From a virus (taxonomy: Duplodnaviria > Caudoviricetes): a DNA stretch of 64,000 nucleotides. The notes below the pieces were generated by a model that saw only the letters and a program-made list of their open reading frames with translations, did not search any database and was not told the DNA's origin. The DNA is taken from positions 1 through 64,000 of the IMG/VR virus record IMGVR_UViG_3300006851_000007; one strand, 5' to 3'. The translations under genes were made by a program, and so were the position numbers. Each line of letters opens with the position of its first letter. Position 1 is the first letter of the stretch. Positions 10,533-27,753 of the stretch are shown piece after piece.

Positions 10533-11207
10533 ATGAGTGTTGTTCTTGCTATTGGCACCTGTACTGATGTATGGCTTCAGACATTCGTGAAACACCACCT
10601 GATCATGAATAAGATCCACAACCAGGCAATCGCAGCTGGGGCCTGGTTGCGATTGAATCTTAATTATAATTGCGAGGTGGATCTAGCAACAAGAGTCGTG
10701 AAGGGGCAAACTCTACCAGAGTCGGTCACGTGGCCATTTAAATGGATTAAAGAACGGAGCGAAAAGGAACTCCAATTCATAGCGGCATCGGCCGTGAGTA
10801 TCGAATGCCATCTTGCGCAAATGATTGACTCTGCTCAAGATAACATCAACGACGGCGAGAGAATACGCCTCGACGACGCCCTTGAAATCTTTAAAGAAAG
10901 AGAGCTTCTTGAGGGGTTATGCTCTTTGCTCGCCACAACAGAAATCGCTTCGGAGGTTGCTGAAATAGGCAATCTCGCAGACGATTGGGGCGATTGGTAC
11001 GCCAAAGAGGTAGAGATGGGTATGGATCCAGATACACCCTTCTCAGGTATAGAGTTTATGAGGAGAGTTGCAACATATGATCCGACTGCATGGTGGATCA
11101 GGCTCGTAAACCATAAACCCCAAAAGAATATATTCGGATATTTTGATGAAATAGACCCGGATACAGCACCTTTTTGGTCCAAAGGGTCTGCGCCAGAGTC
11201 ATACTAA
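10533..11207 (+). CDS. hypothetical protein
   Basis: GGAG RBS before ATG 10533; long ORF. Confidence 0.65.
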   Translation: MSVVLAIGTCTDVWLQTFVKHHLIMNKIHNQAIAAGAWLRLNLNYNCEVDLATRVVKGQTLPESVTWPFKWIKERSEKELQFIAASAVSIECHLAQMIDSAQDNINDGERIRLDDALEIFKERELLEGLCSLLATTEIASEVAEIGNLADDWGDWYAKEVEMGMDPDTPFSGIEFMRRVATYDPTAWWIRLVNHKPQKNIFGYFDEIDPDTAPFWSKGSAPESY

Positions 11208-13015: not shown

Positions 13016-15346
13016 TCAGGATTGGATCTTACAATTATAGTATATGAAGCCACTCTTTTTCTTTTCAAAGCGCTTAGAGACTCCCTCAAAGAACCTCTGG
13101 CTACCCTGAGCCCTATAGCCGTTGAGAGAGCTCCAGTTTTTGTATCTCTGGTACAGGTCTGATGCCTGCACCCAGTCATCCTCACCTCCCTCTGTGATGC
13201 CCTCCATCTCCAGAAAGTAAGCAATCCTATCCGCCTTGTTTCTCCATCTGTGGATCGCTCTATCTGACGAGGGAACATCTACATAGTAGTGCTCACCCCT
13301 TTCCAGCAACCTCTGAACCCCTTCAATTGCCCAGTTGAGCAATCCCTGTCTCTCTTGTGTTTTTATTCTGTGTCCGAGAGTTGGGTCTCTGTCTTTCTCT
13401 GGGATGGTCTTGTTGAACTCTATGATCGCCCATCTTCTCCAGAACCCGTATGACACATCAGCTACTGCTGGTAGAGTGCTTGCGGACATGACTATTCCAA
13501 CACGAGGCTGGAAGAAAATCGGCTTGCCTGCCGGAGACCTTCCCGATATTCGGTTTCCTGTCACGATAGCCTTGAACCCATCACTGTCCATGATGTCGCT
13601 CTCGGGCATCTCGTCGATCGTGTTGATCTTTCTTCCCACAAGCTCTGCCCTGTAGTACTCAGATCTTCCAGACCCGTCTCCCAACTGCTGTGGAGATATG
13701 CTGGACCTGTCGCTGTCCTTGAACATGCTGTTGAATATATCCAAAAATAGAGACTTTCCGTTTGCGCCCTCTCCAAAAAGAATCAAGGCCTTCTCATACT
13801 TGTGGGGCATCCCAAAAAGACATGCTCCTGCGAACTCCTGCAAAAACGCAGTTTTGTTTTCACCGTCCGGATCATCTCCAAATATATCTTCCAAGTACCT
13901 CTGAAATAGCGGTGCTGTTTTGTATGGGTCGTAGGGGATGTCCATTTTGTCTCTGACTTTGTCACTCTTTCTGTAGTCTCTTGCTACAAGCCTGCCGTTC
14001 TCAATCTTCACAATCTTGTCTGAGAAATTCACAGACTCCACAAGACCCTCAAAGAAGGTCGTATCTGTTGTTACCTCCTGCGCGTGACTGATGGCTGCTT
14101 TAATTTTAGATAGACTGAGATTCATAGGTTTCCCTGTCGATCTCTCCACCCCGTCAAGCATTGACAGGTACTCAACCATCTCCCTCATTGATAGCTCTTC
14201 GTATTTCTTATCCCTCTCTATATATTGCCACGAGTTCTCTCCGTCAAAAATCATGTCGTACCGAGCTCTCAAGATTTGAGATAACTCTACGTCACTCCCA
14301 CTGTTGAGTATTATATACTGATCGCTGTGGGGGTCAGTCTTATCTTCCTCAGCCCAGTCTATAAGGACATCTTCCTTTAAGAGCTCTCTGATGTCGTTGC
14401 CTTTGTCTAGCCAATCGACGATGTCTTCCGACTCCCCAACATCCAATCCAATTACCTCTGAGCCCTCGATCTGAGCCGCGATAAATCTTGCGTAGTCGTA
14501 CCCTCCCTCGTCGTTGTCTGGAATTATTCTGACTATTTTTTGGTTGATAACACTCCAGTCAGACATTGGTGCGGCGTTTGATCCCCCTATGGATGTTGTT
14601 ACAATAACTTCCGGAAAGTTATCCTTGTGCATACGCCTTGCTTCATCGCATGCCTTCTGCAACACCTCCATGCACTTCTCGCCCTCTACTATCCACACCT
14701 GCGCGTCAGGGCTTTTGGAAATCTCGTACGCTTTATATAGTGGCCTTATATACTCCTTGGGTGTTCCGAGAACCCATTCTTCATCACCGATCTTTGAGAA
14801 GGGTCTCATACATTTCCCCTCATCCACCTCCCACCTTAAAACAGCTATTAGTACCAGATCCCCCTCAGAGTTTCTCCCTCCTGTTACATGATGGAACGAC
14901 TCTTCCCCAATGGTGAGGTTCCCTAATTTTCTGTAGACCCTTTTTCTCAACTTCCCCTGACTGTCTTTGTATGACTCAATCCTCTCCTCTCCCGATATGT
15001 CTACAGGGGTCAACCTTTCTCTTGATTCGACTTTTTTGCTCTGAGTTCTTTTCCTAAAGTCGTCGATATCGACAACCCTTTCATCACCATACCTCTGTAA
15101 AAGCATTTTAATGGCCTCCTTCGCATCGATGCCGTACTTGACCATGTATGCATCAACTATGGTGCCATACACAACCTCTCCGTCACGACGTGATCCGTGA
15201 TACCTCCATACTATACTGTTTTCCCCAACTTTGACAGATGTGCTATCACCACCCCCTGATGGATGTGGACCATTATCCTCACCCACCTTCATTCCTATAT
15301 CTTCATAGGGTTTTTCCATCTTTTTTATATCATCTAGTGTAACCAT
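13016..15346 (-). CDS. primase-helicase: Toprim primase + D5/P4-type SF3 helicase
   Basis: Toprim WIVEGEKC and PDNDEGG; SF3 Walker A GEGANGKS, IDE Walker B, GFWRR; C-terminal winged helix. Confidence 0.9.
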   Translation of the reverse strand: MVTLDDIKKMEKPYEDIGMKVGEDNGPHPSGGGDSTSVKVGENSIVWRYHGSRRDGEVVYGTIVDAYMVKYGIDAKEAIKMLLQRYGDERVVDIDDFRKRTQSKKVESRERLTPVDISGEERIESYKDSQGKLRKRVYRKLGNLTIGEESFHHVTGGRNSEGDLVLIAVLRWEVDEGKCMRPFSKIGDEEWVLGTPKEYIRPLYKAYEISKSPDAQVWIVEGEKCMEVLQKACDEARRMHKDNFPEVIVTTSIGGSNAAPMSDWSVINQKIVRIIPDNDEGGYDYARFIAAQIEGSEVIGLDVGESEDIVDWLDKGNDIRELLKEDVLIDWAEEDKTDPHSDQYIILNSGSDVELSQILRARYDMIFDGENSWQYIERDKKYEELSMREMVEYLSMLDGVERSTGKPMNLSLSKIKAAISHAQEVTTDTTFFEGLVESVNFSDKIVKIENGRLVARDYRKSDKVRDKMDIPYDPYKTAPLFQRYLEDIFGDDPDGENKTAFLQEFAGACLFGMPHKYEKALILFGEGANGKSLFLDIFNSMFKDSDRSSISPQQLGDGSGRSEYYRAELVGRKINTIDEMPESDIMDSDGFKAIVTGNRISGRSPAGKPIFFQPRVGIVMSASTLPAVADVSYGFWRRWAIIEFNKTIPEKDRDPTLGHRIKTQERQGLLNWAIEGVQRLLERGEHYYVDVPSSDRAIHRWRNKADRIAYFLEMEGITEGGEDDWVQASDLYQRYKNWSSLNGYRAQGSQRFFEGVSKRFEKKKSGFIYYNCKIQS

Positions 15347-16302: not shown

Positions 16303-18021
16303 ATGATCTCTTCTGGTGATAAGATTTGCCGTAAAATCATGCGCGATGATTCGATTGTGCGAGTCTCTCGCCCTATGTTAGCCACTGGAGGGCAAATTAC
16401 ATATTCTGGCGACTGGGTAATTCACACCTTCACCGAAGACGGGGAGTTTGAGGTTCTCGTCGATGGGCTTGAGGTTGAATATCTTATCGTCGGAGGTGGT
16501 GGGGCCGGCGGTTGCTCATATGAACACAACGACAAGCCTGTCGGCGGTGGTGGCGGTGGTGGTGGGGTTCTTTACGGCGCAACCGATTTGCACGGCGATC
16601 TTCCTGTTAAAGTCGGCGGTGGTGGTCAAGGCAATAATTCAAACGGGGTTGGACTGTCAGGCCAAAACTCTTCGCTTGGAAGCTGGGTTGCGATAGGTGG
16701 CTCTGGCGGGGGCTCTGGGACTAACAGGCCGCCTGTCGGTGGTTCTGGCGGGGGCTCTGGAGCTATGAGTCGGAATGTCGCCTATGGGTACTTTGGGCAA
16801 GGCACGTATGGTCAAGGCCATAATGGCGGCAGAGGCTCCCAAAGAGCTGGTGGGGTCGCTGGCGGCGGAGGCGGTGGGGCGACAGGGTTAGGTGGCAACG
16901 GGGCTACCTCTATAAATGAAATGAATAGGAGTGATGCAACAGGCGGCTCAGGCGGTCCCGGGTTCACGTCGGATATTTCTGGCGCACTTTCAGTATATGG
17001 CGGCGGAGGTGGTGGGGCAGCGTACGGCCATCACTATACGCCCTACAATGAATATGGCCGTGCTTTTGGCGGTGTTGGTGGCTCTGGTGGTGGCGGTAAA
17101 GGTGGAGAATCTACTGGCGGGCACCTGTCGGGACAGAATCCTGAATATGACCATTACGCTTCGCCTACACCTGGGGCTCCTGGGACGGGCGGTGGTGGTG
17201 GTGGTGCGTCGCATCACATACCAGATTACCCGGAAGGAGCACCTGGTGGCTCAGGCATTGTTATAATCAGGTACAAAGCTGACGCATCGCCTGTCAAAAC
17301 ATATAGGTTGGGGCCTGTCTTTTATGGTGTCTCAGGTGGCATCGCCCGTTTTGATGCCCGAGCCTACACAAACCAGTTTGTCTCGGAGCAATATTTAAGT
17401 GTTCTGACCGACCGAAGTGGAAACGATAACCACGGCATCGAGAGGGCTGGTTACAATACAGCAGTATTTAAGAAAAGTTCGGCCCGTGTTTTATCCCCTA
17501 ATGTAAAGTTCGACAGCTCGGTCTACGAGCTTCCTGATGCGTTTCGTCTTGAAAAACAAACGCCCTGGACACGCTACACGGTCATCCGTCTCGAGCTGTA
17601 TACAGGAGTTGTGTACTCATGGGAGTACTCAGGCACCACACGACCTGCCTATCGATTTTCAGTGTTGTTTTCGAGCTCAGGTCTCAGGCCCGAGTTGAAT
17701 GTTGGCGGTAATTTGGTGACAGGCCCCGCCATGGACCTGACGACCAATCCTGTCATCGTCACCGTGAGCAATGACGGCACTAACAGCTCCATGTGGATAG
17801 ATGGCGAGAAAGTGATTGACGTGGTTAACGGAACAAGATCCGCGCCCCCGGCTTCACAAGCTCCGTTTTTCGGTGCGTATGGTAGTGGCTCATCCGGGAA
17901 TCCAGCGAGGTTACTGTCTGGCAACCTATTCGATGACATCACGTATCTTGGCGCGCATGATGACCCGACGCGTGAGATGATTGAGGCGAACCTGAGAAGC
18001 GAATGGAGTTGGCTGTTTTGA
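16303..18021 (+). CDS. glycine-rich protein with C-terminal LamG/concanavalin-like domain (putative tail fibre/adhesin)
   Basis: ATGG..IHTFT..VEYLIVGGGGAGG..GGSGIVIIRY glycine-rich domain; DRSGNDNHG..SMWIDGE..SGNLFD jelly-roll signature. Confidence 0.75.
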   Translation: MISSGDKICRKIMRDDSIVRVSRPMLATGGQITYSGDWVIHTFTEDGEFEVLVDGLEVEYLIVGGGGAGGCSYEHNDKPVGGGGGGGGVLYGATDLHGDLPVKVGGGGQGNNSNGVGLSGQNSSLGSWVAIGGSGGGSGTNRPPVGGSGGGSGAMSRNVAYGYFGQGTYGQGHNGGRGSQRAGGVAGGGGGGATGLGGNGATSINEMNRSDATGGSGGPGFTSDISGALSVYGGGGGGAAYGHHYTPYNEYGRAFGGVGGSGGGGKGGESTGGHLSGQNPEYDHYASPTPGAPGTGGGGGGASHHIPDYPEGAPGGSGIVIIRYKADASPVKTYRLGPVFYGVSGGIARFDARAYTNQFVSEQYLSVLTDRSGNDNHGIERAGYNTAVFKKSSARVLSPNVKFDSSVYELPDAFRLEKQTPWTRYTVIRLELYTGVVYSWEYSGTTRPAYRFSVLFSSSGLRPELNVGGNLVTGPAMDLTTNPVIVTVSNDGTNSSMWIDGEKVIDVVNGTRSAPPASQAPFFGAYGSGSSGNPARLLSGNLFDDITYLGAHDDPTREMIEANLRSEWSWLF

Positions 18022-18053
18022 GCACGTTACGAATCAGCGACGCCATCCGATGA

Positions 18054-18251
18054 TCACACCCCTTCCACCTTGACCCGTATATCGCCAGAAACGGCATCAA
18101 CCTTACTGTTGGGTCGAACCATACTGGAACTTGGCCTATGTCCGGCCAGATAGCTGAAGTCATAGCTTACAACAGGCATCTAGATTCTGGAGAGGTCTTC
18201 CAGATAGAATCATACCTTAACGACAAGTACGCAGATCTATTGTCTATGTAG
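18054..18251 (+). pseudogene. orphan alternative C-terminus of a LamG-like domain
   Basis: translates to ..LTVGSNHTGTWPMSGQIAEVIAYNRHLDSGEVFQIESYLNDKYADLLSM*, no proper start. Confidence 0.6.
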
Positions 18252-18337: not shown

Positions 18338-18353
18338 AGGGTATAATATACAT
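18338..18353 (+). promoter_or_regulatory. putative phage promoter driving microprotein array (part 1)
   Basis: AGGGTATAATATAC; motif shared with 9659, 21442, 23745, 24346, 49706. Confidence 0.55.
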
Positions 18354-18388: not shown

Positions 18389-18460
18389 ATGCTACTACCG
18401 GGAGTAGGTATGTGGGATTGCGGTCAGGGTGTATATTACATCACAAATCTTGAGCTTTAA
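18389..18460 (+). CDS. array microprotein 1 (short, 23 aa, ends LEL)
   Basis: GAGGGG RBS; MLLPG..YYITNLEL*. Confidence 0.45.
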   Translation: MLLPGVGMWDCGQGVYYITNLEL

Positions 18461-18471
18461 GGGTATTAGGT

Positions 18472-18618
18472 ATGACTATCGTAGATGTTTACAGATTTTT
18501 AAAAAACAAACGAGAGGGTTTCTACTCTTACGGCAACGTGGGAAATGGGATTATTTATATTTTATATACACGAGAAGGTGATAAATACCCAAAGTATCTC
18601 AGCAGGATTGAGTATTAA
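18472..18618 (+). CDS. array microprotein 2 (48 aa, ends IEY)
   Basis: MTIVDVYR..YLSRIEY*. Confidence 0.7.
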   Translation: MTIVDVYRFLKNKREGFYSYGNVGNGIIYILYTREGDKYPKYLSRIEY

Positions 18619-18633
18619 CTGTGAGGAGTTGTA

Positions 18634-18804
18634 GTGAATATAATCTGCAAAGACTTTAGAAAAACCCTTCAAGGGTTATCAGGCCCGACATACGGTGTAT
18701 ATCCGATATGTACGGTCGGTGGGTACGAGTTTAATGATTTGATATTAGATATGTCATACGGTGAGGGGTCGCAGGGCTTCTTTATTACTATCATCGAGTG
18801 CTAG
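18634..18804 (+). CDS. array microprotein 3 (56 aa, ends IEC)
   Basis: GAGGAG RBS; MNIICK..FITIIEC*. Confidence 0.75.
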   Translation: MNIICKDFRKTLQGLSGPTYGVYPICTVGGYEFNDLILDMSYGEGSQGFFITIIEC

Positions 18805-18812
18805 AATGCGGG

Positions 18813-18872
18813 ATGTATTACTCAGATACATATGAGAAGAAATTCAAACGCATACAAGTCATTGAATATTAA
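18813..18872 (+). CDS. array microprotein 4 (short/remnant, ends IEY)
   Basis: MYYSDTYEKKFKRIQVIEY*. Confidence 0.4.
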   Translation: MYYSDTYEKKFKRIQVIEY

Positions 18873-18932
18873 ACCACACGAACTCTTGGGGTGGTTTCGG
18901 ACTTTTGTGTACAAATAGAACAAGGACTGACT

Positions 18933-19082
18933 TTGAACGTTTTAAAAGCGAGTGACCCCGCGTTATACAGAGAGCCTGGTGGTACCTATTACGTCAGCTT
19001 GTCGGTTGTTGGAGGGATGTATGTAGGCATATACAACCCTAAAAGTCACGCCGTAAACTATTTCTTGCTGATTGAGTTTTGA
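18933..19082 (+). CDS. array microprotein 5 (49 aa, ends IEF)
   Basis: AAGGA RBS, TTG start; ..YFLLIEF*. Confidence 0.7.
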   Translation: MNVLKASDPALYREPGGTYYVSLSVVGGMYVGIYNPKSHAVNYFLLIEF

Positions 19083-19132
19083 TGCAGGATACACATCTGT
19101 GGATGTTGTGACTGATTACATACGGAGGCGAA

Positions 19133-19279
19133 ATGTCGATATTTAAGCAGTTTGGCTCAAATGAGGTTAGGCCGATATATATTGAGGTGGGTGGCCCTTT
19201 CATAAAAAAGGGTGTTATGGAGGTGTATATATTTACCGGCAAACACTTCCCCTCACACACGTTCTACATAGAGTTGTAA
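19133..19279 (+). CDS. array microprotein 6 (48 aa, ends IEL)
   Basis: GGAGG RBS; MSIFKQ..TFYIEL*. Confidence 0.75.
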   Translation: MSIFKQFGSNEVRPIYIEVGGPFIKKGVMEVYIFTGKHFPSHTFYIEL

Positions 19280-19281
19280 CC

Positions 19282-19461
19282 ATGGAAATATTTCCTTATA
19301 GCGAAGCGAATATTCTGGGTGAGATAAATCACACCTATTCTACGGTCAGTGGGTCGTATGTCTTCCCCGGATTTCAAAGGATGGTGGTCCTGGTTCTATT
19401 TTATCCAGACAGCAAGAAGAAGGGGGCTAACAAGTTTTACATATGCAATCTTGAGTACTAA
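19282..19461 (+). CDS. array microprotein 7 (59 aa, ends LEY)
   Basis: MEIFPY..YICNLEY*. Confidence 0.7.
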   Translation: MEIFPYSEANILGEINHTYSTVSGSYVFPGFQRMVVLVLFYPDSKKKGANKFYICNLEY

Positions 19462-19473
19462 CCTGAGGCGGTC

Positions 19474-19626
19474 ATGGAGCTGATGGAGCTGACGGATCAA
19501 AAGATCTGGGATGGGAAACTGGTGGACTCTAAATATCTCATTGTAAGAACAGAGGGGTATGTTTTGGTTTACATCAAGAAATTGGCAAGAAGTTTCTCAT
19601 GCAGAATGGCTGCGCTTGAGGCGTAA
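19474..19626 (+). CDS. array microprotein 8 (50 aa, ends LEA)
   Basis: GAGG RBS; MELMEL..RMAALEA*. Confidence 0.7.
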   Translation: MELMELTDQKIWDGKLVDSKYLIVRTEGYVLVYIKKLARSFSCRMAALEA

Positions 19627-19643
19627 GCACAGGAGGTGTGGGT

Positions 19644-19820
19644 ATGATTATCTGTAATGTTGATAGATGGAGAACTCATAACAAAGACACGATGTACTTC
19701 GCCGGCAATAACAGGGTGTACTTCGTCGGCAATAAGTCGTACTTATACAATTTAGTACCTCTGTATGTGCCCACACATAATGGCAAATATCTTTTTCTTT
19801 TCGACTGGATCGAGTTCTAG
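19644..19820 (+). CDS. array microprotein 9 (58 aa, ends IEF)
   Basis: AGGAGG RBS; MIICNV..FDWIEF*. Confidence 0.75.
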   Translation: MIICNVDRWRTHNKDTMYFAGNNRVYFVGNKSYLYNLVPLYVPTHNGKYLFLFDWIEF

Positions 19821-19853
19821 AATCATAGAGACCTCATTTATCAGGAGGCAGAT

Positions 19854-20003
19854 ATGAGCCTTGTCAATATAATCAAGCACAGGTCTGGAGATTTTAGGCA
19901 TAAAGAGTGTTACTTTTTCATACCTCGTAACAGGCGTGCATATATATACGAGTTAGGCAGGCGGGATGGGGTTAAGTCAGTTTTTTCCTTCATCGAATTT
20001 TGA
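19854..20003 (+). CDS. array microprotein 10 (49 aa, ends IEF)
   Basis: AGGAGG RBS; MSLVNI..FSFIEF*. Confidence 0.75.
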   Translation: MSLVNIIKHRSGDFRHKECYFFIPRNRRAYIYELGRRDGVKSVFSFIEF

Positions 20004-20010
20004 GGCACGA

Positions 20011-20175
20011 ATGACAATCATGCGGTTTACACACCTTTTGAAAAACGATGTGATTTACGATTGTTACTATCTACTGTATGAGGAATACGACAGCGCATCA
20101 AATATGGCTTGGATTTATAAATACAGCCCAGAAAATCACGCCAAACCTTCTGTAATATCATCCATAGAAATCTAA
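20011..20175 (+). CDS. array microprotein 11 (54 aa, ends IEI)
   Basis: GAGG RBS; MTIMRF..ISSIEI*. Confidence 0.7.
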   Translation: MTIMRFTHLLKNDVIYDCYYLLYEEYDSASNMAWIYKYSPENHAKPSVISSIEI

Positions 20176-20186
20176 GAGCCAACGTA

Positions 20187-20342
20187 ATGCAGATTCTTAG
20201 CGCCGCTTATCCTGACTGGGGTCTGGGTTGTTATTATTTCTACATGGACCGGACACATAAAACAATCTTGATATTTACCACACACCCTTCAGTATCTGAT
20301 GAGGGTTGGGCGATCAATAGTATTGCAAGTATTGAAATTTAA
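20187..20342 (+). CDS. array microprotein 12 (51 aa, ends IEI)
   Basis: MQILSA..IASIEI*. Confidence 0.7.
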   Translation: MQILSAAYPDWGLGCYYFYMDRTHKTILIFTTHPSVSDEGWAINSIASIEI

Positions 20343-20369
20343 TCTATATACGTCGATCAGGGGGTGGTT

Positions 20370-20516
20370 ATGTCAGTTATAAAGTTCCAGTATTCAACAT
20401 TCAACAAGCCGTATGCCTACTACTATCATTTCACACCTTTTGGTTTATTGTCTATAGGTTTATTTCAGGATGGCATAAGCTGGGTGGAGATGACAAGGGT
20501 TGAGGTTGATTTATAA
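20370..20516 (+). CDS. array microprotein 13 (48 aa, ends VEVDL)
   Basis: GGGGG RBS; MSVIKF..TRVEVDL*. Confidence 0.7.
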   Translation: MSVIKFQYSTFNKPYAYYYHFTPFGLLSIGLFQDGISWVEMTRVEVDL

Positions 20517-20582
20517 TGTAGGGGTTATAAATATCGTACATGATATGGATTTAACCAGGTATAACAAGTACAAGGATTAGGT

Positions 20583-20750
20583 GTGGGTGTTATTAATTTA
20601 GATCATTTCAACTTAGATGTTGATCCGGATAAAGTGTCTTACTACTGTCAAAGCGAAACTTCTTCCAACATTGTGTGGCTTGGCATATATATTCCAGACA
20701 GAGGCCAGCTTGAAGAGTGTTGGATAGAATTAACCGAGGTTGAGGTTTAA
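20583..20750 (+). CDS. array microprotein 14 (55 aa, ends VEV)
   Basis: AAGGA RBS, GTG start; ..LTEVEV*. Confidence 0.7.
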   Translation: MGVINLDHFNLDVDPDKVSYYCQSETSSNIVWLGIYIPDRGQLEECWIELTEVEV

Positions 20751-20780
20751 CTGTTTTGGTGGATAACCTCGAGGTGTTAT

Positions 20781-20927
20781 ATGTCTATATCCTTAGTGTC
20801 TAGTGTATGGGGTGGGGGTTGTACTTATATGTTCTCCGCAACAAGGGGAGTGGAGGCAGGAATATGGCTATTCGGCCCAAAATATGTAGATGGAAGACTC
20901 AACTTCATCTCATTTATTGAGTATTAA
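20781..20927 (+). CDS. array microprotein 15 (48 aa, ends IEY)
   Basis: GAGGT RBS; MSISLV..ISFIEY*. Confidence 0.75.
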   Translation: MSISLVSSVWGGGCTYMFSATRGVEAGIWLFGPKYVDGRLNFISFIEY

Positions 20928-20949
20928 TAGAGAAGGTGGTAAGGTGGTG

Positions 20950-21135
20950 ATGAATTTTTGGCTAGAACACGATTTTTGGCGAGAATACGGACTCTGGAGG
21001 GACTCAAAAGGTTCGTTAAGTTACCCGTGTTTGGACACCTTTGGGACAGACGGGGGCAGAACAGTAACCATATGCAGCACTAAAGCTCACAGCAAAGGTG
21101 GGTCTATTTGGGTCATATGTGCTATTGAGGTTTGA
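20950..21135 (+). CDS. array microprotein 16 (61 aa, ends IEV)
   Basis: AAGGT RBS; MNFWLE..ICAIEV*. Confidence 0.7.
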   Translation: MNFWLEHDFWREYGLWRDSKGSLSYPCLDTFGTDGGRTVTICSTKAHSKGGSIWVICAIEV

Positions 21136-21196
21136 TGGCACTGTAACGGATAATTTAAACTGTGGGCAGATGAGTATATCGTACATCGAGGTATAG
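21125..21196 (+). CDS. array microprotein 17 (short/remnant, ends IEV)
   Basis: ..GQMSISYIEV*; start uncertain. Confidence 0.35.
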   Translation: MRFDGTVTDNLNCGQMSISYIEV

Positions 21197-21239
21197 CAGG
21201 CCACACCCTAATGGTCTTGTATCGAGCGTCTACTGAAGT

Positions 21240-21407
21240 ATGAAAATAGAAGTCTGGCAAGATATATACAATACATACACAAACGACACGTACAAAGATG
21301 TGTATATGGTAGTTTGGATGTCAAAAAACGGTAACTACTGGTGTATAAATCTAAACCTATTCGGGGATAACAAAATCCCTGTCGCCAGATTCAGTCTCGA
21401 GTATTAG
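21240..21407 (+). CDS. array microprotein 18 (55 aa, ends LEY)
   Basis: MKIEVW..RFSLEY*. Confidence 0.7.
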   Translation: MKIEVWQDIYNTYTNDTYKDVYMVVWMSKNGNYWCINLNLFGDNKIPVARFSLEY

Positions 21408-21441
21408 CCATTGCCGCTACCGCTAAATAAATGCAGGTGGC

Positions 21442-21457
21442 AGGGGATAATATATAC
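21442..21457 (+). promoter_or_regulatory. putative phage promoter inside array (part 2)
   Basis: AGGGGATAATATATAC. Confidence 0.55.
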
Positions 21458-21495
21458 CAGGCAAACACATTCAACTCTCTTAGAGGTGATACAAC

Positions 21496-21660
21496 ATGAC
21501 CATCATAGTTGATTTATGTCCTGGACAAGAAGTCACGTTTTGGATGAGGGCGAAAGGGTTTTATAGCTCATTTGCCTCCCAGGAAACGCTAACAGTTACG
21601 TACGAATGGAACGAAGACGGTGAGACCTGGTACACACACCTCTTTTGCCTGGAACTGTAG
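21496..21660 (+). CDS. array microprotein 19 (54 aa, ends LEL)
   Basis: GAGGTG RBS; MTIIVD..LFCLEL*. Confidence 0.75.
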   Translation: MTIIVDLCPGQEVTFWMRAKGFYSSFASQETLTVTYEWNEDGETWYTHLFCLEL

Positions 21661-21676
21661 TCAGTGGAGATGCAAA

Positions 21677-21844
21677 ATGATGATGGTAGATATGAGAAAG
21701 GTGAGCATGCTTTACGAAGAAGGGTCGGTACCGACATCCTCTGTGTATGTGGCGCTATTTTTAGACTGGGCGGTGCTAATAAGGGTGGGGGGAGATGTAG
21801 TAGCAAGCCCAAGACCTCTGGAATACATGTCTTTAGAGTTTTAA
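21677..21844 (+). CDS. array microprotein 20 (55 aa, ends LEF)
   Basis: GGAG RBS; MMMVDM..YMSLEF*. Confidence 0.7.
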   Translation: MMMVDMRKVSMLYEEGSVPTSSVYVALFLDWAVLIRVGGDVVASPRPLEYMSLEF

Positions 21845-21898
21845 GTGCCCGCAGGAGGGACGTGTCTATAGGTTGTTAGGGTGGAGTACTGAGGTTGC

Positions 21899-22066
21899 AT
21901 GTTTCTCATTTTAAGCATAAGTGGTGAAGAGGGGGCGAGCGGGGTGTTTTACACCCTCTCGTCCTCCCCTAAGGGGTATTTTTTGTATTTTTGTAAGACT
22001 TTATACAGTCACGAAAGAGGGGCTCACGTCATAACAAACACAGAGATTGTAGAGCTGGAGGCGTAA
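21899..22066 (+). CDS. array microprotein 21 (55 aa, ends LEA)
   Basis: GAGGT RBS; MFLILS..IVELEA*. Confidence 0.7.
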   Translation: MFLILSISGEEGASGVFYTLSSSPKGYFLYFCKTLYSHERGAHVITNTEIVELEA

Positions 22067-22075
22067 TGGTTTCCG

Positions 22076-22120
22076 ATGCCAGGGGATGGGGGCGGGTGGA
22101 GCGTGGGTATTGAAATATGA
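22076..22120 (+). CDS. array microprotein 22 (remnant, 14 aa, ends IEI)
   Basis: MPGDGGGWSVGIEI*. Confidence 0.3.
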   Translation: MPGDGGGWSVGIEI

Positions 22121-22137
22121 ATTAGCGCGAGGATGAA

Positions 22138-22314
22138 TTGAATATTGTACTAAAAAAGGATGCACGAAAATACAGTTGGGAGGACTGTATATATCAACTA
22201 TTTGACGTTTGTTATGAACTACCCCCAGGTGATAACAGGATAATGGCTGCGTATCTGTATTCAAGAGGGGTGGGGAGGCGGTACTCTCATACTGCGATAA
22301 TTTTAGAGATATAG
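22138..22314 (+). CDS. array microprotein 23 (58 aa, ends LEI)
   Basis: GAGGA RBS, TTG start; MNIVLK..AIILEI*. Confidence 0.7.
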   Translation: MNIVLKKDARKYSWEDCIYQLFDVCYELPPGDNRIMAAYLYSRGVGRRYSHTAIILEI

Positions 22315-22323
22315 GAGACAGTT

Positions 22324-22503
22324 ATGAGCTTTACTATTTACGGGCGGGAGGATTTTCTAAAAGGTGGACTTAAATATAGCTTTACACATGTGGTAAATCT
22401 TTATCTGGGGGGTTTGGAGAGGGGCGAGGTAATCATAAACGGCGTGCACGGTTTTATACACGATGAGTGGAATCCACCGATGTCTGTGGTGCTGGAGTGC
22501 TAA
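22324..22503 (+). CDS. array microprotein 24 (59 aa, ends LEC)
   Basis: AGGAG RBS; MSFTIY..SVVLEC*. Confidence 0.75.
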   Translation: MSFTIYGREDFLKGGLKYSFTHVVNLYLGGLERGEVIINGVHGFIHDEWNPPMSVVLEC

Positions 22504-22691
22504 TGAATATTGTCGATAGCGAAGAGTACTGGGAGTACAGTGTAGATGACAGGCATGGGGCGTATTACGCGCTTGACATTGGAGATTTCGATTGGGATGA
22601 AAAGATGGTGTTGTATAGAGGCGGGTGGAGTCTTGAGGAGTATCATTGGCGTATTAACTTAGAATACGGCCTGAATGATACTAACCAGTGA
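22503..22691 (+). CDS. array microprotein 25 (62 aa, LEY + 7-aa extension)
   Basis: TAATG coupling; MNIVDS..RINLEYGLNDTNQ*. Confidence 0.7.
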   Translation: MNIVDSEEYWEYSVDDRHGAYYALDIGDFDWDEKMVLYRGGWSLEEYHWRINLEYGLNDTNQ

Positions 22692-22739
22692 TACGAATAG
22701 CTCAATATCTCACAATAAAGACAGAGGTGTAAACGTGTC

Positions 22740-22922
22740 ATGGAAATAATACATGCAGGCGGTATTGCGGGAAAGTCTGGTCCGGCTTATGCTTATGATT
22801 ACGATCTCCCTTATAGTCACCACTCTACCTCTCTCAGGTATATAGATTTACTTATCTTCTATGTCGATGAAGGGGGGTGTAGAGATTGCCCAATGATCCT
22901 TTTGTTTTATATTGAGTGTTAA
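22740..22922 (+). CDS. array microprotein 26 (60 aa, ends IEC)
   Basis: GAGGT RBS; MEIIHA..LFYIEC*. Confidence 0.7.
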   Translation: MEIIHAGGIAGKSGPAYAYDYDLPYSHHSTSLRYIDLLIFYVDEGGCRDCPMILLFYIEC

Positions 22923-22924
22923 AC

Positions 22925-23086
22925 ATGGACCTATTGAAAGAAATTCCGGCCAATAACTCCCCTGAGAAAAGAAAGGTATATTACATAATGACAGATATAC
23001 CCTTTCGCGAGGGTGGTATTTCATTTCTCGTCGTGGCGCTCGAACGTGGGTGCCGCTATTTAAATGCGATGAATATAGAGGTGTAG
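22925..23086 (+). CDS. array microprotein 27 (53 aa, ends IEV)
   Basis: MDLLKE..AMNIEV*. Confidence 0.7.
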   Translation: MDLLKEIPANNSPEKRKVYYIMTDIPFREGGISFLVVALERGCRYLNAMNIEV

Positions 23087-23087
23087 G

Positions 23088-23255
23088 GTGAATATAGTAA
23101 ACTACGAAGACGCCATGGATGCCAGGATATACGATCGCGCGGGGGAGTATTATGTTTTAGACCGGATAAGAGTGGGGCGGGAAGGGGAGATGATGTTTCA
23201 CATATCGTTGGGTCGTTATTTTGGTAAAGTCGAGATTATGTATATTGAATATTGA
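23088..23255 (+). CDS. array microprotein 28 (55 aa, ends IEY)
   Basis: GAGGT RBS, GTG start; MNIVNY..IMYIEY*. Confidence 0.75.
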   Translation: MNIVNYEDAMDARIYDRAGEYYVLDRIRVGREGEMMFHISLGRYFGKVEIMYIEY

Positions 23256-23272
23256 TACTATTTGGAGGTTTT

Positions 23273-23452
23273 ATGGACATTTTAAGCCCTTCGGAGGTAT
23301 ATGATGCATATATATACAGTCTCAACAATAATGTCAGGGCGGTTAAGTATATTTCTCTAAAGCAACAATCGAAAAATCTATATCTTGATATTATCATTTT
23401 GGATAAAGGACAAAAATACGCGTTAGAACTTCCAATAGAGATAGAGTGCTAA
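23273..23452 (+). CDS. array microprotein 29 (59 aa, ends IEC)
   Basis: GGAGG RBS; MDILSP..PIEIEC*. Confidence 0.75.
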   Translation: MDILSPSEVYDAYIYSLNNNVRAVKYISLKQQSKNLYLDIIILDKGQKYALELPIEIEC

Positions 23453-23797
23453 TAATAGTGGGGAATATGCATCACTCTGGGGTAATCCTAACAAGCAACG
23501 CTTATAGCACCGGCGCCGATAAAAAGGACCTACCGGTTTTTTTTACACTACACCGAACAGCCAACCCGACCCACCTCTGATAAGCCCTGCTAAGGGTGTC
23601 ACAAAACACACTCCTGAAGCCACAGAATCGATCAGGAGACACTTCTTGCAACACGGTGCTACCAACAGTCGTATCGTACCCACAAGTCGGATATAAGCCC
23701 CACTAAGGGCTCGCATTACATTACCCGGAATATGGCCCGTTTTTACGGTATAATACATCCAGGTACGTCACTTATATATCAGCCAATAGGAGTGTTA

Positions 23798-24010
23798 GTG
23801 ATCATTCATACGATACAAGAGCACAATCGCGGTGGGGTTAGGTGGGTCAAGGATCAATTGCTTTATGTAGCGTTGGATCTTCCCAGTCGTGGTCGCTTGA
23901 AGGTGATATTTGCGGCGACGGTGGGCGAGGGTGGAAAACTTCAAGGGGGTTTAGACATGTGGGAGCTCGGTGTGAATATATTCATAGAATACATGATTGG
24001 GGAGGATTGA
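23798..24010 (+). CDS. array-like microprotein 30 (70 aa, IEY + 5-aa extension)
   Basis: AGGAG RBS, GTG start; MIIHTI..NIFIEYMIGED*; promoter ACGGTATAATACA at 23745. Confidence 0.6.
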   Translation: MIIHTIQEHNRGGVRWVKDQLLYVALDLPSRGRLKVIFAATVGEGGKLQGGLDMWELGVNIFIEYMIGED

Positions 24011-24011
24011 T

Positions 24012-24278
24012 ATGGCAGAGCTGTATGAGGGTGGTATTAGACAATACATCGCAGAGGCGTTGACTCTTGGGTGGTACGATGTTCTTGTTGAGAGCTCCTA
24101 CAACTTCATGGAGGAGGTGATTAATTCCGATTTGCCTCGAGAGGATCAAAATGAGGCAATTTTTGCTCTTTTGGAAATAATAAGGGGTGCGAAATCGAGG
24201 GATGGGGCTTCTATTTTTTCTGGTTTGTATAAGTTAAGAAAACGTGTGGAAAACCATGATCTTGTAAAATTTATATAA
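24012..24278 (+). CDS. hypothetical helical protein
   Basis: GGAGG RBS; 88 aa. Confidence 0.65.
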   Translation: MAELYEGGIRQYIAEALTLGWYDVLVESSYNFMEEVINSDLPREDQNEAIFALLEIIRGAKSRDGASIFSGLYKLRKRVENHDLVKFI

Positions 24279-24402
24279 AGCGACACTTCCCAGTATAGCA
24301 TGGGGGTCCAAATTAAAAAAATGCCACTAAAATTACGTGGCTTTGGGGTGATAATATATCTGCGGACTTCCTGTGATATTCTACACTTTAAAAGAGGTGA
24401 TT

Positions 24403-25470
24403 ATGGATGTTAAAAGCGCAACAAAAACCGCTATTATTTTCTGCAAAAATAAAATTCCTGTCATGTTCCGTGGTCCCCACGGGATTGGTAAGTCAGAAAT
24501 TGTCTACCAGATTGCACAGGAGTTAGAGCTTCCGGTCGTTGAGAGGCGAGCATCTCAAATGACAGAGGGTGACCTACTCGGGCTTCCTGACAGAGGTGAG
24601 GGGGGAGTAACAAAATTCCTTCCCCCTGAATGGTACCAAAGGGCTTGTGATGAACCTGTGCTGCTTTTCTTTGACGAGATCGATAGATCTATCGTTCAGG
24701 TCGCACAAGGAATCTTTGAGATTACTGACTCAAGGAAAATATTTGGCAACAAGCTCCACCCAGAGACAGTTATTATGGCTGCTGTGAACTCCGGGGTTGA
24801 CACATTCAGCTACCAGACAAGAACGATGGATCCCGCAGAGCTTGACCGGTGGGGGGTCATCGATATCACCCCATCGGTTGATGAATGGCTTGACTGGGCG
24901 GAGAGCAGCGAAGTGGACCCCATGGTGGTTAGCTTTATCCGCAGCAACCCAACCTCTCTGGAGCATTACGATTCTAATTTTGAGCCTAACAAGGTGTACC
25001 CCTCAAGGAGGTCTTGGGTTCGCCTATCCAATATGATAAAGGGTATTGATTATACGACAAAGGAGGGTCTTTCTGTATTGCAGAATGTTGCCCTTGCTAT
25101 GGTGGGGCAGGATACTGCGATCTCCTTCAGGAGGTATATCGAGGATATCAGTATCAACCTAAACGAGATGCTGTCAGATGATGCCGTTCTCAAGAAGGCA
25201 ATCGAGGCCCCGTTCGAGATTAAGATTGACTTGATCAACCAGGTCAGGGTCGGAAGAGTGCGACCGGAGAACCCCCTCGAGGTTACCCTCGGAAAAGAGG
25301 AGGTGGGTAGACTTATTAAGTTTATGGACTCTCTGGAAGACGAACAGGTGTTTGCCCTCATTCGATCTATTGGTGTTGGTAATCGCATCTTCATCAAAGA
25401 GTGTGGGTATAACATTGATGATAAGTTTGTCGAACTCACACAGAAAAGTGGCTTAAAGATGGAGGAGTAA
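24403..25470 (+). CDS. MoxR-like AAA+ ATPase
   Basis: Walker A GPHGIGKS, Walker B LLFFDEIDR, MDPAELDRW, PSRRSW; GAGGTG RBS; promoter GGTGATAATATA at 24347. Confidence 0.9.
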   Translation: MDVKSATKTAIIFCKNKIPVMFRGPHGIGKSEIVYQIAQELELPVVERRASQMTEGDLLGLPDRGEGGVTKFLPPEWYQRACDEPVLLFFDEIDRSIVQVAQGIFEITDSRKIFGNKLHPETVIMAAVNSGVDTFSYQTRTMDPAELDRWGVIDITPSVDEWLDWAESSEVDPMVVSFIRSNPTSLEHYDSNFEPNKVYPSRRSWVRLSNMIKGIDYTTKEGLSVLQNVALAMVGQDTAISFRRYIEDISINLNEMLSDDAVLKKAIEAPFEIKIDLINQVRVGRVRPENPLEVTLGKEEVGRLIKFMDSLEDEQVFALIRSIGVGNRIFIKECGYNIDDKFVELTQKSGLKMEE

Positions 25471-26654
25471 TGTCTAGTGGGCGAAGAATCATGGGTGCAG
25501 CATTATCCGAGCTCATGATCAGGGAGCCCTTTTGGGCTTCCGTATCTTATCACGTTGAGAAGATAGCATCCAACTCAATCCCCCTTATGGCCGTTGGGTT
25601 TCATGGGAAGGGGTATAAGCTTATATACAACCCAGAAGGACTAGAACGGATGAAGGTGGACCATCCGGATGAGTATATTAAATACACCATGGGTGTAATA
25701 AAGCATGAGTTTTTACACATCGTGTTCGACCATGTTTCGGTGTTTACAAAAAATAAAAACGAAACAAAGACGATGAATATCGCCATGGATCTTGCCATCA
25801 ATAGCTTTATTGCTGATGAGATTCCAGAAACGGCGCTGATCCCCGGAAGGGGTGCGTTTGAGAACTATGAGCCCAACCTGTCCTTCATTGAGTATTATGA
25901 GCAACTTAAGGGTGATGAGTCAATATCATTGGAGGAATTCGATACGGTTCATCTCACCGTGGAGGACCTGGAGAGGATTCTGGGTGAGGTTGACAGACTG
26001 TCTCCAGAAGAGATGGAAGTCGTCAGAAGGATGATCATAGATGTCGCGACAAGCAGAGCAGAAGGTGAGGGGTGGGGAACTGTATCTAGAGACATGCAGG
26101 ATAAGATAAGAGCGTCAATGATGAATATCATTGATTGGAGGGGGCTCTTGAGAAGGTTTATCGGAAATGCTGTTGTTGATGAGATGAATACTTCTTTTAA
26201 GAGAATCAACAGGAGGTACCCGTGGCAGTTTCCAGGAACAAGGAGGGATAATCAGCCGAAGGTGGCGGTGTCGATTGATATGTCCGGATCGATGAGCGAT
26301 GAAGACTTGGCTGATATTGCTGGGGAGCTAAACGCACTGTCTGACACAGCTTCGTTCACAGTTATTCCATTCGATACTGAGGTGGCAGAAGAACATATAT
26401 ACGAATGGAGGAAGGGTCGGAAATTTGGTGAGATTGACAGAGTTGCATGCGGCGGAACTGACCTAAGCGCTCCCATCTTGTATGTTGACAAAAGCGTGGG
26501 CAACTTTTCAGCACACATCATGTTTAGTGACCTGCATGCCTGTACTCCACCAATCCCGAGGGTAAAGACTGTGTTCTTCGTTCCAGAGGGTGGCAATATG
26601 GATTTAGATCACCCTTCCGAGAAAATCATGATGGTGAGAGGTCGTAATGATTAA
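25470..26654 (+). CDS. putative metallopeptidase + vWA domain protein (DUF2201-like), MoxR partner
   Basis: HEFLH + NIAMDLAIN; MIDAS DMSGS, GGTD, FSD; TAATG-coupled to the ATPase. Confidence 0.88.
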   Translation: MSSGRRIMGAALSELMIREPFWASVSYHVEKIASNSIPLMAVGFHGKGYKLIYNPEGLERMKVDHPDEYIKYTMGVIKHEFLHIVFDHVSVFTKNKNETKTMNIAMDLAINSFIADEIPETALIPGRGAFENYEPNLSFIEYYEQLKGDESISLEEFDTVHLTVEDLERILGEVDRLSPEEMEVVRRMIIDVATSRAEGEGWGTVSRDMQDKIRASMMNIIDWRGLLRRFIGNAVVDEMNTSFKRINRRYPWQFPGTRRDNQPKVAVSIDMSGSMSDEDLADIAGELNALSDTASFTVIPFDTEVAEEHIYEWRKGRKFGEIDRVACGGTDLSAPILYVDKSVGNFSAHIMFSDLHACTPPIPRVKTVFFVPEGGNMDLDHPSEKIMMVRGRND

Positions 26655-26919
26655 CGAGAAATACGAGATACTCGCTCTCGTAAATAATATTAAAAATAGG
26701 GCAGAGAAGGCGAGAAGTAGGGAGGATATAGAGCAAATAGAATACTACTCCAGGCTTATCGTCAGGTGTTGTCAGGAGGGGGCAGTGTCAGACATAAAAC
26801 TTGACGTGAAGGGGATATTGGAGAGATCTAGCAAGCATAACGCAATAATCTTTGTCAAGAACGTTACAGGGATAACCCTGGCTGAGGCAAGGGAGTGGGT
26901 TGAGAATAATATAGACTGA
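26647..26919 (+). CDS. protein with ribosomal L7/L12 C-terminal-like domain
   Basis: KHNAIIFVKNVTGITLAEAREWVE resembles KxxAIKxVRxxTGLGLKEAKxxVE. Confidence 0.55.
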   Translation: MINEKYEILALVNNIKNRAEKARSREDIEQIEYYSRLIVRCCQEGAVSDIKLDVKGILERSSKHNAIIFVKNVTGITLAEAREWVENNID

Positions 26920-26926
26920 CACAAAT

Positions 26927-26950
26927 GGGGCCCTGCGCCCCTATTTTTTT
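26927..26950 (+). terminator. intrinsic terminator
   Basis: GGGGC-CCTGC-GCCCC-TATTTTTTT. Confidence 0.6.
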
Positions 26951-26967
26951 AGATATAGAGAGGGAAA

Positions 26968-27753
26968 ATGAAGGTAGCATTATCTGGGTCTGGCATGCTG
27001 TATCCTGTTCACGTTGGAGCAATCAAGAGGCTTATGGAGTCTGGAAATATAAGAGAGATTAGCGGGACGAGCGGTGGGGCGATAGTCGCAGCTATGGTCG
27101 CATCAGACGTTGGCAGACTAGAGGAGATGGTTATAAACAATATGCCAATGGACGGCAAACTATTTAACCCCTCCCTTACCAACCTCCGAAATTATGGACT
27201 TATGGACGGGAGAAGGATTGAGAGATTGTTTGAAAGGTTTTTCCCTGCAACTTTTTCTGAGACAAAGATACCACTAAGGGTTGTAACAGCGAATCTTAAT
27301 AAGCGTACACATATGGTGTTTGGAACAGAGGAGACCCCGAGCATATCTGTGGCAAGAGCTGTGAGGGCTAGCATGAGTATTCCAGGAATATTCAGCCCTG
27401 TGTCTATAGGTGGAGACCTTCATGTTGACGGGGGTATCGCCGCAAATCTTCCGATCAACCTGTACAGCCCAGACGATGACGTGATCGGTATTAGGGTGAG
27501 GGCCAACCCGAAGATGAATGACAATATTTCCGGGGTTAAAGATTACATTATGTCGGTAATGAGTATTGTTATGGACACCCTGACAAACCATGGTGTAGAT
27601 CATTACACGAATAGTAGAATAATAACTATATATAGCAATAACAACGGTTTGAATTTCATGATGAGTAAAGAAGATGCAATAAAAATGATGTGGGAGGGAT
27701 ATAAAACAGTTGACAAGTGGATAAAAAAGAATAATCTCTCATCGACTAAATAA
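26968..27753 (+). CDS. patatin-like phospholipase
   Basis: ALSGSG, GTSGG nucleophile, ASMSIPG, DGG. Confidence 0.9.
   Translation: MKVALSGSGMLYPVHVGAIKRLMESGNIREISGTSGGAIVAAMVASDVGRLEEMVINNMPMDGKLFNPSLTNLRNYGLMDGRRIERLFERFFPATFSETKIPLRVVTANLNKRTHMVFGTEETPSISVARAVRASMSIPGIFSPVSIGGDLHVDGGIAANLPINLYSPDDDVIGIRVRANPKMNDNISGVKDYIMSVMSIVMDTLTNHGVDHYTNSRIITIYSNNNGLNFMMSKEDAIKMMWEGYKTVDKWIKKNNLSSTK

Follow-up and report, generated by a model that had tools for sequence, protein, structure and literature searches.

A tandem array of about 30 divergent microprotein genes with a fixed hydrophobic-Glu-hydrophobic chain end in an uncultured phage

Between positions 18389 and 24010 of a 64,000-nucleotide stretch of viral DNA lies a 5.6-kb row of small genes, all on the + strand, and it is this array that we describe here. 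The stretch, referred to below as the window, is the first 64 kb of the 124,780-bp IMG/VR virus record IMGVR_UViG_3300006851_000007, which is estimated to be 75% complete and comes from an uncultured soil/compost phage of about 165 kb. By listing open reading frames (ORFs) down to 20 amino acids (aa) and then scanning the region from stop to stop, we found 26 ORFs of 48-70 aa, three short ones (23, 19 and 32 aa) and a 14-aa relic (Table 1; members m01 to m29). This reproduces the count in an initial annotation made from the sequence alone, which had described about 30 same-strand ORFs, 26 of them 48-70 aa long and four short. The coding density is 86% over 18389-23452.

The ORFs share the way in which they end. 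The motif [I/L/V]-Glu-x stands directly at the stop codon in 27 of the 30 ORFs, exactly the number initially reported, and the remaining three add 2, 5 or 7 residues. When 29 members are anchored on the Glu, this residue is present in 29 of 29, position -3 is Ile, Leu or Val in 29 of 29, and the last residue is hydrophobic in 27 and Ala in 2. The shared hydrophobic start that had been proposed was seen as well: the full-length members begin with Met, a polar residue and a hydrophobic residue in 26 of 26 cases (Ile in 16), and 85% have a hydrophobic residue at position 4. The initial annotation had made its case depend on an excess of the motif over shuffled sequence, and such an excess was found, with 23 of the 31 + strand ORFs of at least 40 aa in the region ending in [ILV]-E-x compared to a mean count of 0.13 and a maximum of 2 in 500 shuffles. 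None of the 16 ORFs on the - strand of the region and 1 of about 160 ORFs on the + strand in the rest of the window end in this way. Among the small ORFs of other phage loci the motif end occurred in 64 of 8704 and in 32 of 5809 (about 0.6% of 14,500).

As the region appears empty to ORF finders at the usual length cut-off, it could be argued that it holds no genes at all and that the frames are due to chance, to a decayed repeat protein or to a read-through polyprotein. We give this explanation next to no weight, as it is contradicted by the shuffle and strand comparisons and also by codon usage. Using a codon-frame model trained on the long ORFs of the phage, we obtained a positive score for 29 of 29 members with a mean of 0.18, the reference values being 0.25 for long genes cut into 55-codon segments and -0.006 for the genome's complete set of 395 small ORFs. 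Most starts are preceded at the proper distance by GAGG or GGAG, which also speaks against it and agrees with the initial description of most members as having their own Shine-Dalgarno (SD) sequence or being coupled, and the arrangement is kept in strain variants and the family in a sister phage (see below). One long read-through protein is impossible because successive genes change frame, and read-through or an alternative genetic code was rejected on the grounds that neighbours switch frame and that all three stop codons are used. The gene caller of the public collection likewise called the array genes. The ORFs of the array are real genes.

The constraint on the chain end acts mainly on the protein, because the motif is spelled with eight different codons at -3 and with both codons for Glu, and is followed by any of the three stops (TAA in 15, TAG in 7 and TGA in 4); the last residue uses 16 codons. 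The initial annotation had placed the constraint on the protein rather than on the DNA, and this stands for the main part, while the choice of Glu codon shows an RNA-level component besides. In the window family the motif Glu is encoded by GAG in 20 and by GAA in 6 members, compared with 62% GAG genome-wide (p 0.08), and in the sister phage GAG is used in 15 of 18 against a background of 50% (p 0.003). Because of this bias in the sister phage, a secondary, Shine-Dalgarno-like pressure on the Glu codon lies atop the protein constraint, and it could stem from an SD-like element of coupled translation or from homogenisation of the junctions by recombination. It is not the main cause, since GAA is tolerated (9 of 44 over both phages), Ile at -3 does not give GGAG, and the motif is found where no gene follows. 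Nor is the motif just a coupling signal or the ribosome-binding site of the next gene, because members that precede gaps of 30-88 nt have it too, as does the final gene of the run, ahead of a 345-nt gap. There are four closely abutting pairs with GAG 5-8 nt ahead of the next start, and only these could use it as a signal. No nucleotide repeat family spans units or junctions, as the initial annotation had also stated.

Between the two ends the members have little in common. An all-against-all phmmer search gave a single pair at E 1e-4 (m24 with m27, three genes apart), and leave-one-out profiles regained only 9 of the 26 members at E<0.05, which bears out the little pairwise identity noted initially. 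In a MAFFT alignment one mid-chain Tyr is at least 90% conserved and the mean column identity is 17%. The similarity of the interiors, expressed as a pairwise Z with a positive bias (an unrelated small-protein family used as control has a mean of 0.40, with 6% of pairs above 2), has a mean of 0.80 within the family, with 15% of pairs above 2, and a mean of 0.27 across the two phages, with 7.5% of pairs above 2, which is not above the control. Since the interior similarity is barely above the control, homology of the members rests on termini, size, composition, arrangement and synteny. The proteins are rich in Tyr, Cys and Trp and poor in Ala, Gln and Pro, have mixed isoelectric points and are without a signal peptide. 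Adjacent members are somewhat more alike (Z 1.37 at distance 1 compared to 0.71 beyond 5), the short and relic copies retain the C-terminal end, and the segment made up of the promoter-like element and the first ORF resembles the segment ahead of m29. The array is best read, as far as such comparisons can tell, as the product of old, repeated tandem duplication of one small gene.

A sister phage is represented by a 7.4-kb contig (L089, the same contig as L093) whose primase is 52% identical to that of the window. Here 18 genes of 45-75 aa flank the primase on both sides, on the opposite strand and divergent from it. Their N-termini read M-[NEQK]-[ILM] and their C-termini [LIM]-E-[YHCAI]-stop, in most cases L-E-Y, and the exact end is present in 18 of 18; ORFs with this signature number 18 of 44 on the array strand and 0 of 9 on the other. 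The composition of the sister and window families is close (Tyr 8.9 compared to 8.5%, Trp 2.8 to 2.1, Phe 5.1 to 5.1 and Cys 1.9 to 1.9), and position -3 is mostly Ile in the window and mostly Leu in the sister phage, a conservative change at the protein level. The window profile matches three of the sister proteins with E 8e-4 to 0.02 in a 19-sequence set, and the reverse profile misses the window members; the sister-phage members were found through synteny only, not by profile search. Their junctions are near-uniform (yTG GAG TAT TAG GAGG N4-5 ATG), with the GGAG arising from the Leu-Glu codons. The array adjoins the primase in both phages. Because the sister phage bears these 18 further members at the orthologous primase, the family belongs to the lineage, a kinship judged from signature, size, composition, arrangement and neighbourhood. 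The repeat of the signature in the sister phage also supports the initial proposal of a diversified paralogous family.

A third contig of the lineage (L090, primase 41% identical) has rows of 58-148-aa proteins on the - strand at 914-2540 and 8792-10892. These end in two or three hydrophobic residues followed by Tyr-stop (VLY, VAY, VIY, VFY, IHY, IFY, ILY) and make up another fixed-end family in the same place; the proteins of 76-148 aa among them have three hydrophobic residues before the Tyr.

Four further studies of compost, soil and fertilizer metagenomes contain near-identical strain variants, collinear with the array. The strains diverge by 3-17% in the array compared to 0.6-2.4% in 24081-24600 just downstream. 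The substitutions listed within members comprise 11 synonymous and 16 non-synonymous ones (27 in total), and the last three codons are untouched in all, which suggests weak purifying selection on fast-changing genes in this small sample. The strain contigs also contain a 1-nt deletion in m16 (in a G5 run at 21052) and a compensating -1/-2 pair in m27 (23170 and 23202), and in the window the IEV-ending members m16 and m17 overlap, each in its own frame. These observations suggest either remodelling of members by frameshifts or errors in low-depth contigs. Variant proteins rebuilt from the listed indels, which make up a minority of all differences, ran into stops, and this counts neither for nor against broken copies.

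Searches with the proteins and with the family profile gave no relatives outside the lineage. Against Pfam and PHROGs, the 26 full-length members gave at best scattered hits of one member each, at E 0.006-0.08 and short of the curated cut-offs. The profile had no hits at E<=1 among PDB sequences, and an exhaustive hmmsearch of 1.84 billion representatives yielded only proteins of the window itself (7 hits at E<=1e-3), which were also all that a word-indexed search of 5.8 billion proteins returned. Within the genome, matches to the profile are confined to the array. The motif family was absent from 80 loci around MoxR homologues and from 80 around distant primase homologues. Relatives that are both very short and divergent would fall under the threshold of profile searches, and distant ones are not expected from this profile because leave-one-out profiles regain just 9 of 26 members. 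With Pfam, PHROGs, the PDB profile search, the 1.84 billion representatives and the fold libraries all without a relative, the initial impression that no described family matches proved right, and to judge by these sequence searches both the family and its exact C-terminus are new to the databases.

Structure prediction gave models of modest confidence. Running AlphaFold2 with the 26 paralogues as alignment, we obtained a model of m02 with a predicted local distance difference test score (pLDDT) of 69 and strands at 27-32 and 42-47, its C-terminal hairpin being the confident part (pLDDT 85-91). The model of m27 (pLDDT 72, predicted template modelling score 0.49) has a strand at 2-5, short helices, strands at 19-25 and 35-41 and a bridge at 53-54. 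The shared small beta fold that had been suggested is weakly supported, as the two models agree on the C-terminal hairpin and on nothing else. Foldseek with the m02 model gave E>5 against the PDB; the m27 model reached a best Z of 3.7 with VIA-align wide and a template modelling (TM) score of at most 0.59 in the ESM Atlas, the matches being mixed and unrelated in both. A feature search of the ESM Atlas gave either no usable hit or scores of 0.81-0.82, a level that shuffled proteins reach as well. Comparison of the N-terminal beta-alpha-alpha-beta-beta part of the m27 model (pLDDT 72) with the Phd/YefM antitoxin fold reached no more than VIA Z 2.3-2.7 and atlas TM 0.48-0.49, and no toxin partner gene is present.

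The array is set in a region of replication/early type, with a primase on one side and the genes for a MoxR-type ATPase, a DUF2201 protein and a patatin-like phospholipase on the other (Table 1). Farther along the record are a DNA polymerase, a ribonucleotide reductase, a 2043-aa RNA-polymerase-like gene (49708) and a terminase. The closest named phages reach only about 26% identity in terminase or ATPase, the array DNA has no similarity to 50,697 phage records, near relatives sought in IMG/VR via the MoxR ATPase or the Gly-rich protein were not found, and a scan of JGI metagenomes gave merely two distant fragments; the lineage is poorly sampled. Scans of the array region for tRNAs and with Rfam gave no match.

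Ahead of the array is a promoter-like element, GGTATAATA, which occurs in 8 copies in the 125-kb record compared to 1.4 expected (at 18340, 23747 and 49708 in the window and at 85823, 89469, 101579, 103305 and 123672 of the genome). One copy stands directly before the RNA-polymerase-like gene, three have gCTAAAT 17-18 nt upstream, and the 15-nt context TTTTAsGGTATAATA is present twice in the window, at 18334 and ahead of m29. On this pattern we regard GGTATAATA as a candidate phage promoter class. Across the array, promoter-like sites number 20 compared to 17.9 in shuffles and terminator-like sites 2 compared to 3.8. The array may thus be one operon of 28 genes, probably of the early class. 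Folding the 345-nt gap after m28 as RNA gave z 0.07. The same gap contains two 17-nt copies of ATAAGCCCyrCTAAGGG (23580-23596 and 23693-23709), each a small CCCy...rGGG hairpin.

Around the array we made some further observations. The MoxR-DUF2201-patatin gene order is also present in a related contig (L002), and thousands of phage contigs from metagenomes encode the ATPase-DUF2201 pair. A 37-aa ORF at 18138-18251, 3' of the Gly-rich gene, echoes the C-terminal pattern of that gene (...YNRHL..E...IE.YLNDKY). The strain-variant contigs cease to match upstream of about 18040-18097 and continue into unlike sequence (the 17900-18100 zone); the 3' part of the Gly-rich gene seems to have been swapped between strains, possibly leaving the 37-aa ORF behind as a remnant of its end.

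Table 1. Members of the array, DNA elements and neighbouring genes (window positions).
Feature	Position	Strand	Length	Remarks
DUF5906/D5-type primase-helicase	13016-15346	-		
Glycine-rich protein (Gly_rich_2)	16303-18021			
GGTATAATA, promoter-like -10 element	18340-18348	+		behind T-tract, 41 nt before first ORF
m01	18389-18460	+	23 aa	end NLEL; short, truncated-looking; resembles C-terminal half of m29
m02	18472-18618	+	48 aa	end RIEY; AlphaFold2 model
m03	18634-18804	+	56 aa	end IIEC
m04	18813-18872	+	19 aa (24 aa if GTG 18798)	end VIEY; short
m05	18933-19082	+	49 aa (63 aa if GTG 18891)	end LIEF
m06	19133-19279	+	48 aa	end YIEL
m07	19282-19461	+	59 aa	end NLEY; start 2 nt past m06 stop
m08	19474-19626	+	50 aa	end ALEA
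m09	19644-19820	+	58 aa	end WIEF
m10	19854-20003	+	49 aa	end FIEF
m11	20011-20175	+	54 aa	end SIEI
m12	20187-20342	+	51 aa	end SIEI
m13	20370-20516	+	48 aa	end VEV + DL
m14	20583-20750	+	55 aa	end EVEV
m15	20781-20927	+	48 aa	end FIEY
m16	20950-21135	+	61 aa	end AIEV
m17	21098-21196	+	32 aa	end YIEV; short; 38-nt overlap with m16, other frame
m18	21240-21407	+	55 aa	end SLEY
m19	21496-21660	+	54 aa	end CLEL
m20	21677-21844	+	55 aa	end SLEF
Relic	21872-21892		6 codons	end VEY
m21	21899-22066	+	55 aa	end ELEA
Relic	22076-22120	+	14 aa	end GIEI; 30th ORF of the initial annotation
m22	22138-22314	+	58 aa	TTG start; end ILEI
m23	22324-22503	+	59 aa	end VLEC
m24	22503-22691	+	62 aa	NLEY + 7 residues; start overlaps m23 stop (TAATG)
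m25	22740-22922	+	60 aa	end YIEC
m26	22925-23086	+	53 aa	end NIEV
m27	23088-23255	+	55 aa	GTG start; end YIEY; AlphaFold2 model
m28	23273-23452	+	59 aa	end EIEC; closes main run, followed by 345 nt without a member
A-tract, weak hairpin, T8 run	23520-23544	+		possible operon end; consensus terminator scan made no call
GGTATAATA, second element	23747-23755	+		ahead of m29
m29	23798-24010	+	70 aa (92 aa if ATG 23732)	FIEY + 5; apart from the run, leads to MoxR/DUF2201 genes
MoxR-type AAA+ ATPase (AAA_5)	24373-25470			
DUF2201 protein	25470-26654			HEFLH zincin motif and DMSGS MIDAS motif, both intact
Patatin-like phospholipase	beyond DUF2201 gene			MoxR-DUF2201-patatin block 24373-27753

The reading we prefer, and hold with slightly better than even confidence, is that the two end strands are the scaffold and the variable middle is the free working surface of an old, tandem-duplicated accessory family. 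A full-length gene would encode a cytoplasmic, Tyr/Trp/Cys-rich, mostly beta protein of 48-70 residues, in which the first strand would begin at residue 1, the last strand would stop one residue past the invariant Glu, and the middle would be free to vary. The end strands would make a minimal fold in which the chain termini participate, for example if the Glu and the carboxylate at the chain end pair with the N-terminal amine or an adjacent subunit, and the variable middle would serve as the working surface. The genes would be dispensable accessory genes, probably early, and their products a changing set of small binders directed against components of the host or of rival phages, in host takeover or counter-defence.

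Several points weigh against this. The similarity of the interiors within the family is at most modestly above that of the control, the ratio of synonymous to non-synonymous changes comes from 27 listed changes only, and the two models of modest confidence share just the C-terminal hairpin, with no fold match found. A host-directed function is suggested by analogy. Moreover, an invariant and probably surface-facing Glu over 47 proteins exceeds what a scaffold usually needs, which favours a docking role of the end; a fixed C-terminus by itself is as compatible with the closing strand of a minimal fold as with docking.

A distinctly less probable explanation than the scaffold is that the hydrophobic-Glu-hydrophobic-COOH end, perhaps together with the N-terminus, is a docking tag read by one common machine, the bodies of the proteins being cargo, decoys or adaptors. 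The initial annotation had likewise suggested a docking terminus, on proteins that might be interchangeable adaptors, anti-defence inhibitors or decoys. The machine could be a reader of C-termini (PDZ-like, or an adaptor of a protease or unfoldase), a packaging or ejection route, or the MoxR and DUF2201 proteins, in which the vWA MIDAS or the zincin site could bind the Glu and the carboxylate. Such a tag would account for a Glu that stays the same in all 29 + 18 proteins from the two phages as the rest drifts, and a use of the free carboxylate is indicated by the exact end, found in 27 of 30 ORFs here and in all 18 sister-phage members. HEFLH and DMSGS are intact in the DUF2201 protein, which is encoded 1.5 kb downstream, and marine phages with a homologous MoxR have arrayed another fixed-end small-protein family around that ATPase. 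However, the sister-phage array sits at the primase, and the closest MoxR relatives (contigs L002 and L006, 57-58% identity, with about 290 nt and about 1 kb of upstream sequence, respectively) are directly preceded by a zinc-ribbon gene rather than an array member. Hundreds of phages have a MoxR-DUF2201 pair but not the family, and 80 further MoxR loci lack the motif family. As to other readers, PDZ_2, PDZ_6 and Peptidase_S41 were not found in the 125-kb record, which is about 75% complete, and members without a signal peptide would be out of reach of periplasmic PDZ proteases. A complex prediction of DUF2201 with m27 scored 0.00 and, having been run without controls, counts neither for nor against binding. 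Slightly less probable again than docking as such is an undescribed combination of tag and library, in which about 30 interchangeable, fast-evolving domains would engage a shared partner via their end tags in host takeover or counter-defence; such a system may extend to the fixed-end orphan microprotein arrays of large uncultured phages.

The end might instead be conserved as nucleic acid, the gene junction (...yTG GAG TAT TAG GAGG N4-5 ATG...) acting both as an SD-like signal for coupled translation and as a recombination substrate that shuffles or captures unrelated mini-ORFs, similar to the role of promoter/stem-loop cassettes in the hyperplastic regions of T4-type phages; the interiors would then need neither homology nor a single function. 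The near-uniform junctions of the sister phage with GGAG from their Leu-Glu codons, the preference for GAG in 15 of 18 and 20 of 26 members, the four abutting pairs and the near lack of detectable similarity between interiors all fit this idea. We nevertheless think it improbable, as position -3 in the window is mostly Ile (ATT/ATC/ATA), which yields no GGAG, and eight codons at -3, sixteen at -1 and GAA in 9 of 44 members are tolerated. Most gaps contain a separate SD, with 13-90 nt between the Glu codon and the following start, and the motif persists in the last gene before the 345-nt gap. The junctions are not spanned by any nucleotide repeat family, and the members have their size, a Tyr-rich composition and the mid-chain Tyr (at least 90%) in common. 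We consider it highly unlikely that the genes encode multi-copy precursors of ribosomally made peptides, with a constant recognition end, a variable core and an enzyme encoded elsewhere. Prochlorosin-type precursor sets do consist of many hypervariable short ORFs with a constant end, and the tandem row of hypervariable short ORFs described here recalls them. In the array both ends are fixed over 3-4 residues each and there is no long leader, the sequences resemble folded, aromatic-rich beta proteins, Cys, Ser and Thr are unpatterned, and the neighbours (Gly_rich_2, AAA_5, DUF2201 and patatin) include no maturase family.

Large phages repeatedly spend several percent of their genome on rows of tiny orphan genes that annotation skips, a gene class that gene callers and family databases overlook. 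With its roughly 30 copies in the window and 18 more in the sister phage, the family gives a testable handle on whether such a row is a library of binders on a minimal scaffold or a set of tagged cargo. If the members are indeed counter-defence or host-takeover proteins, the array would offer a panel of small binders already made by nature.

That large phages expand tiny accessory genes in tandem is already known. The jumbo phages G and 121Q carry more than 30 "very similar" tandem gene copies on the same strand, which were read as duplication that expands the genome (Hua et al. 2017, mBio, PMC5646251). The array resembles these in copy number, in its same-strand row and in belonging to a large phage. 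Unlike them, its copies have diverged past pairwise detection (17% column identity) with only the ends kept, and they are much smaller and belong to a family unrelated by sequence to anything searched. The hyperplastic regions of T4-type phages hold small non-essential ORFans between conserved modules, set apart by cassettes with promoters and stem-loops (Arbiol et al. 2010, PMC2839356). They resemble the array in being small genes without homologues between conserved modules, near replication/early genes and variable among close relatives. They differ in consisting of unrelated ORFans, whereas the array is one family with one or two promoter-like sites; between its genes neither promoter nor terminator motifs are enriched, and GGTATAATA is present only at the two ends.

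Another comparison is with marine phages of about 185 kb (L005:2150-5536, L004:1999-4293, L011 and about 65 other MoxR loci), which carry tandem 55-80-aa proteins of the pattern MKVGDLV...LEVISESR. We counted 303 distinct copies of this family in 80 loci, on both sides of the MoxR/DUF2201 genes; it has no match in Pfam, reaches PHROGs only at E of about 0.01, shows an SH3/KOW-like pattern and looks widespread and essentially unannotated. Like the window family it has a fixed first strand, a fixed last strand with hydrophobic-Glu-hydrophobic and many paralogues per genome. The window members in contrast lack GDLV, and the marine ones have the SESR tail after the strand and are not Tyr-rich. Profile comparison of the two families gave hhalign P 0.29-0.41, over the IE/LE residues only, and hidden Markov model searches gave E>0.05 in both directions; the GDLV...LEVISESR family was not found in the genome of the window phage. 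On these comparisons the marine family appears analogous to, and not detectably homologous with, that of the window.

The closest known way in which such an end works is that of PDZ-type readers, for example the activation of DegS by the Y-x-F-COOH end of outer-membrane proteins. The DegS ligands likewise present a free hydrophobic-x-hydrophobic-COOH end as a beta strand; unlike the window proteins, in which the Glu is invariant, they are periplasmic, have a variable middle residue and prefer Phe. What stands out among these systems is an exact hydrophobic-Glu-hydrophobic chain end that is absolutely conserved over 47 proteins whose interiors have dissolved.

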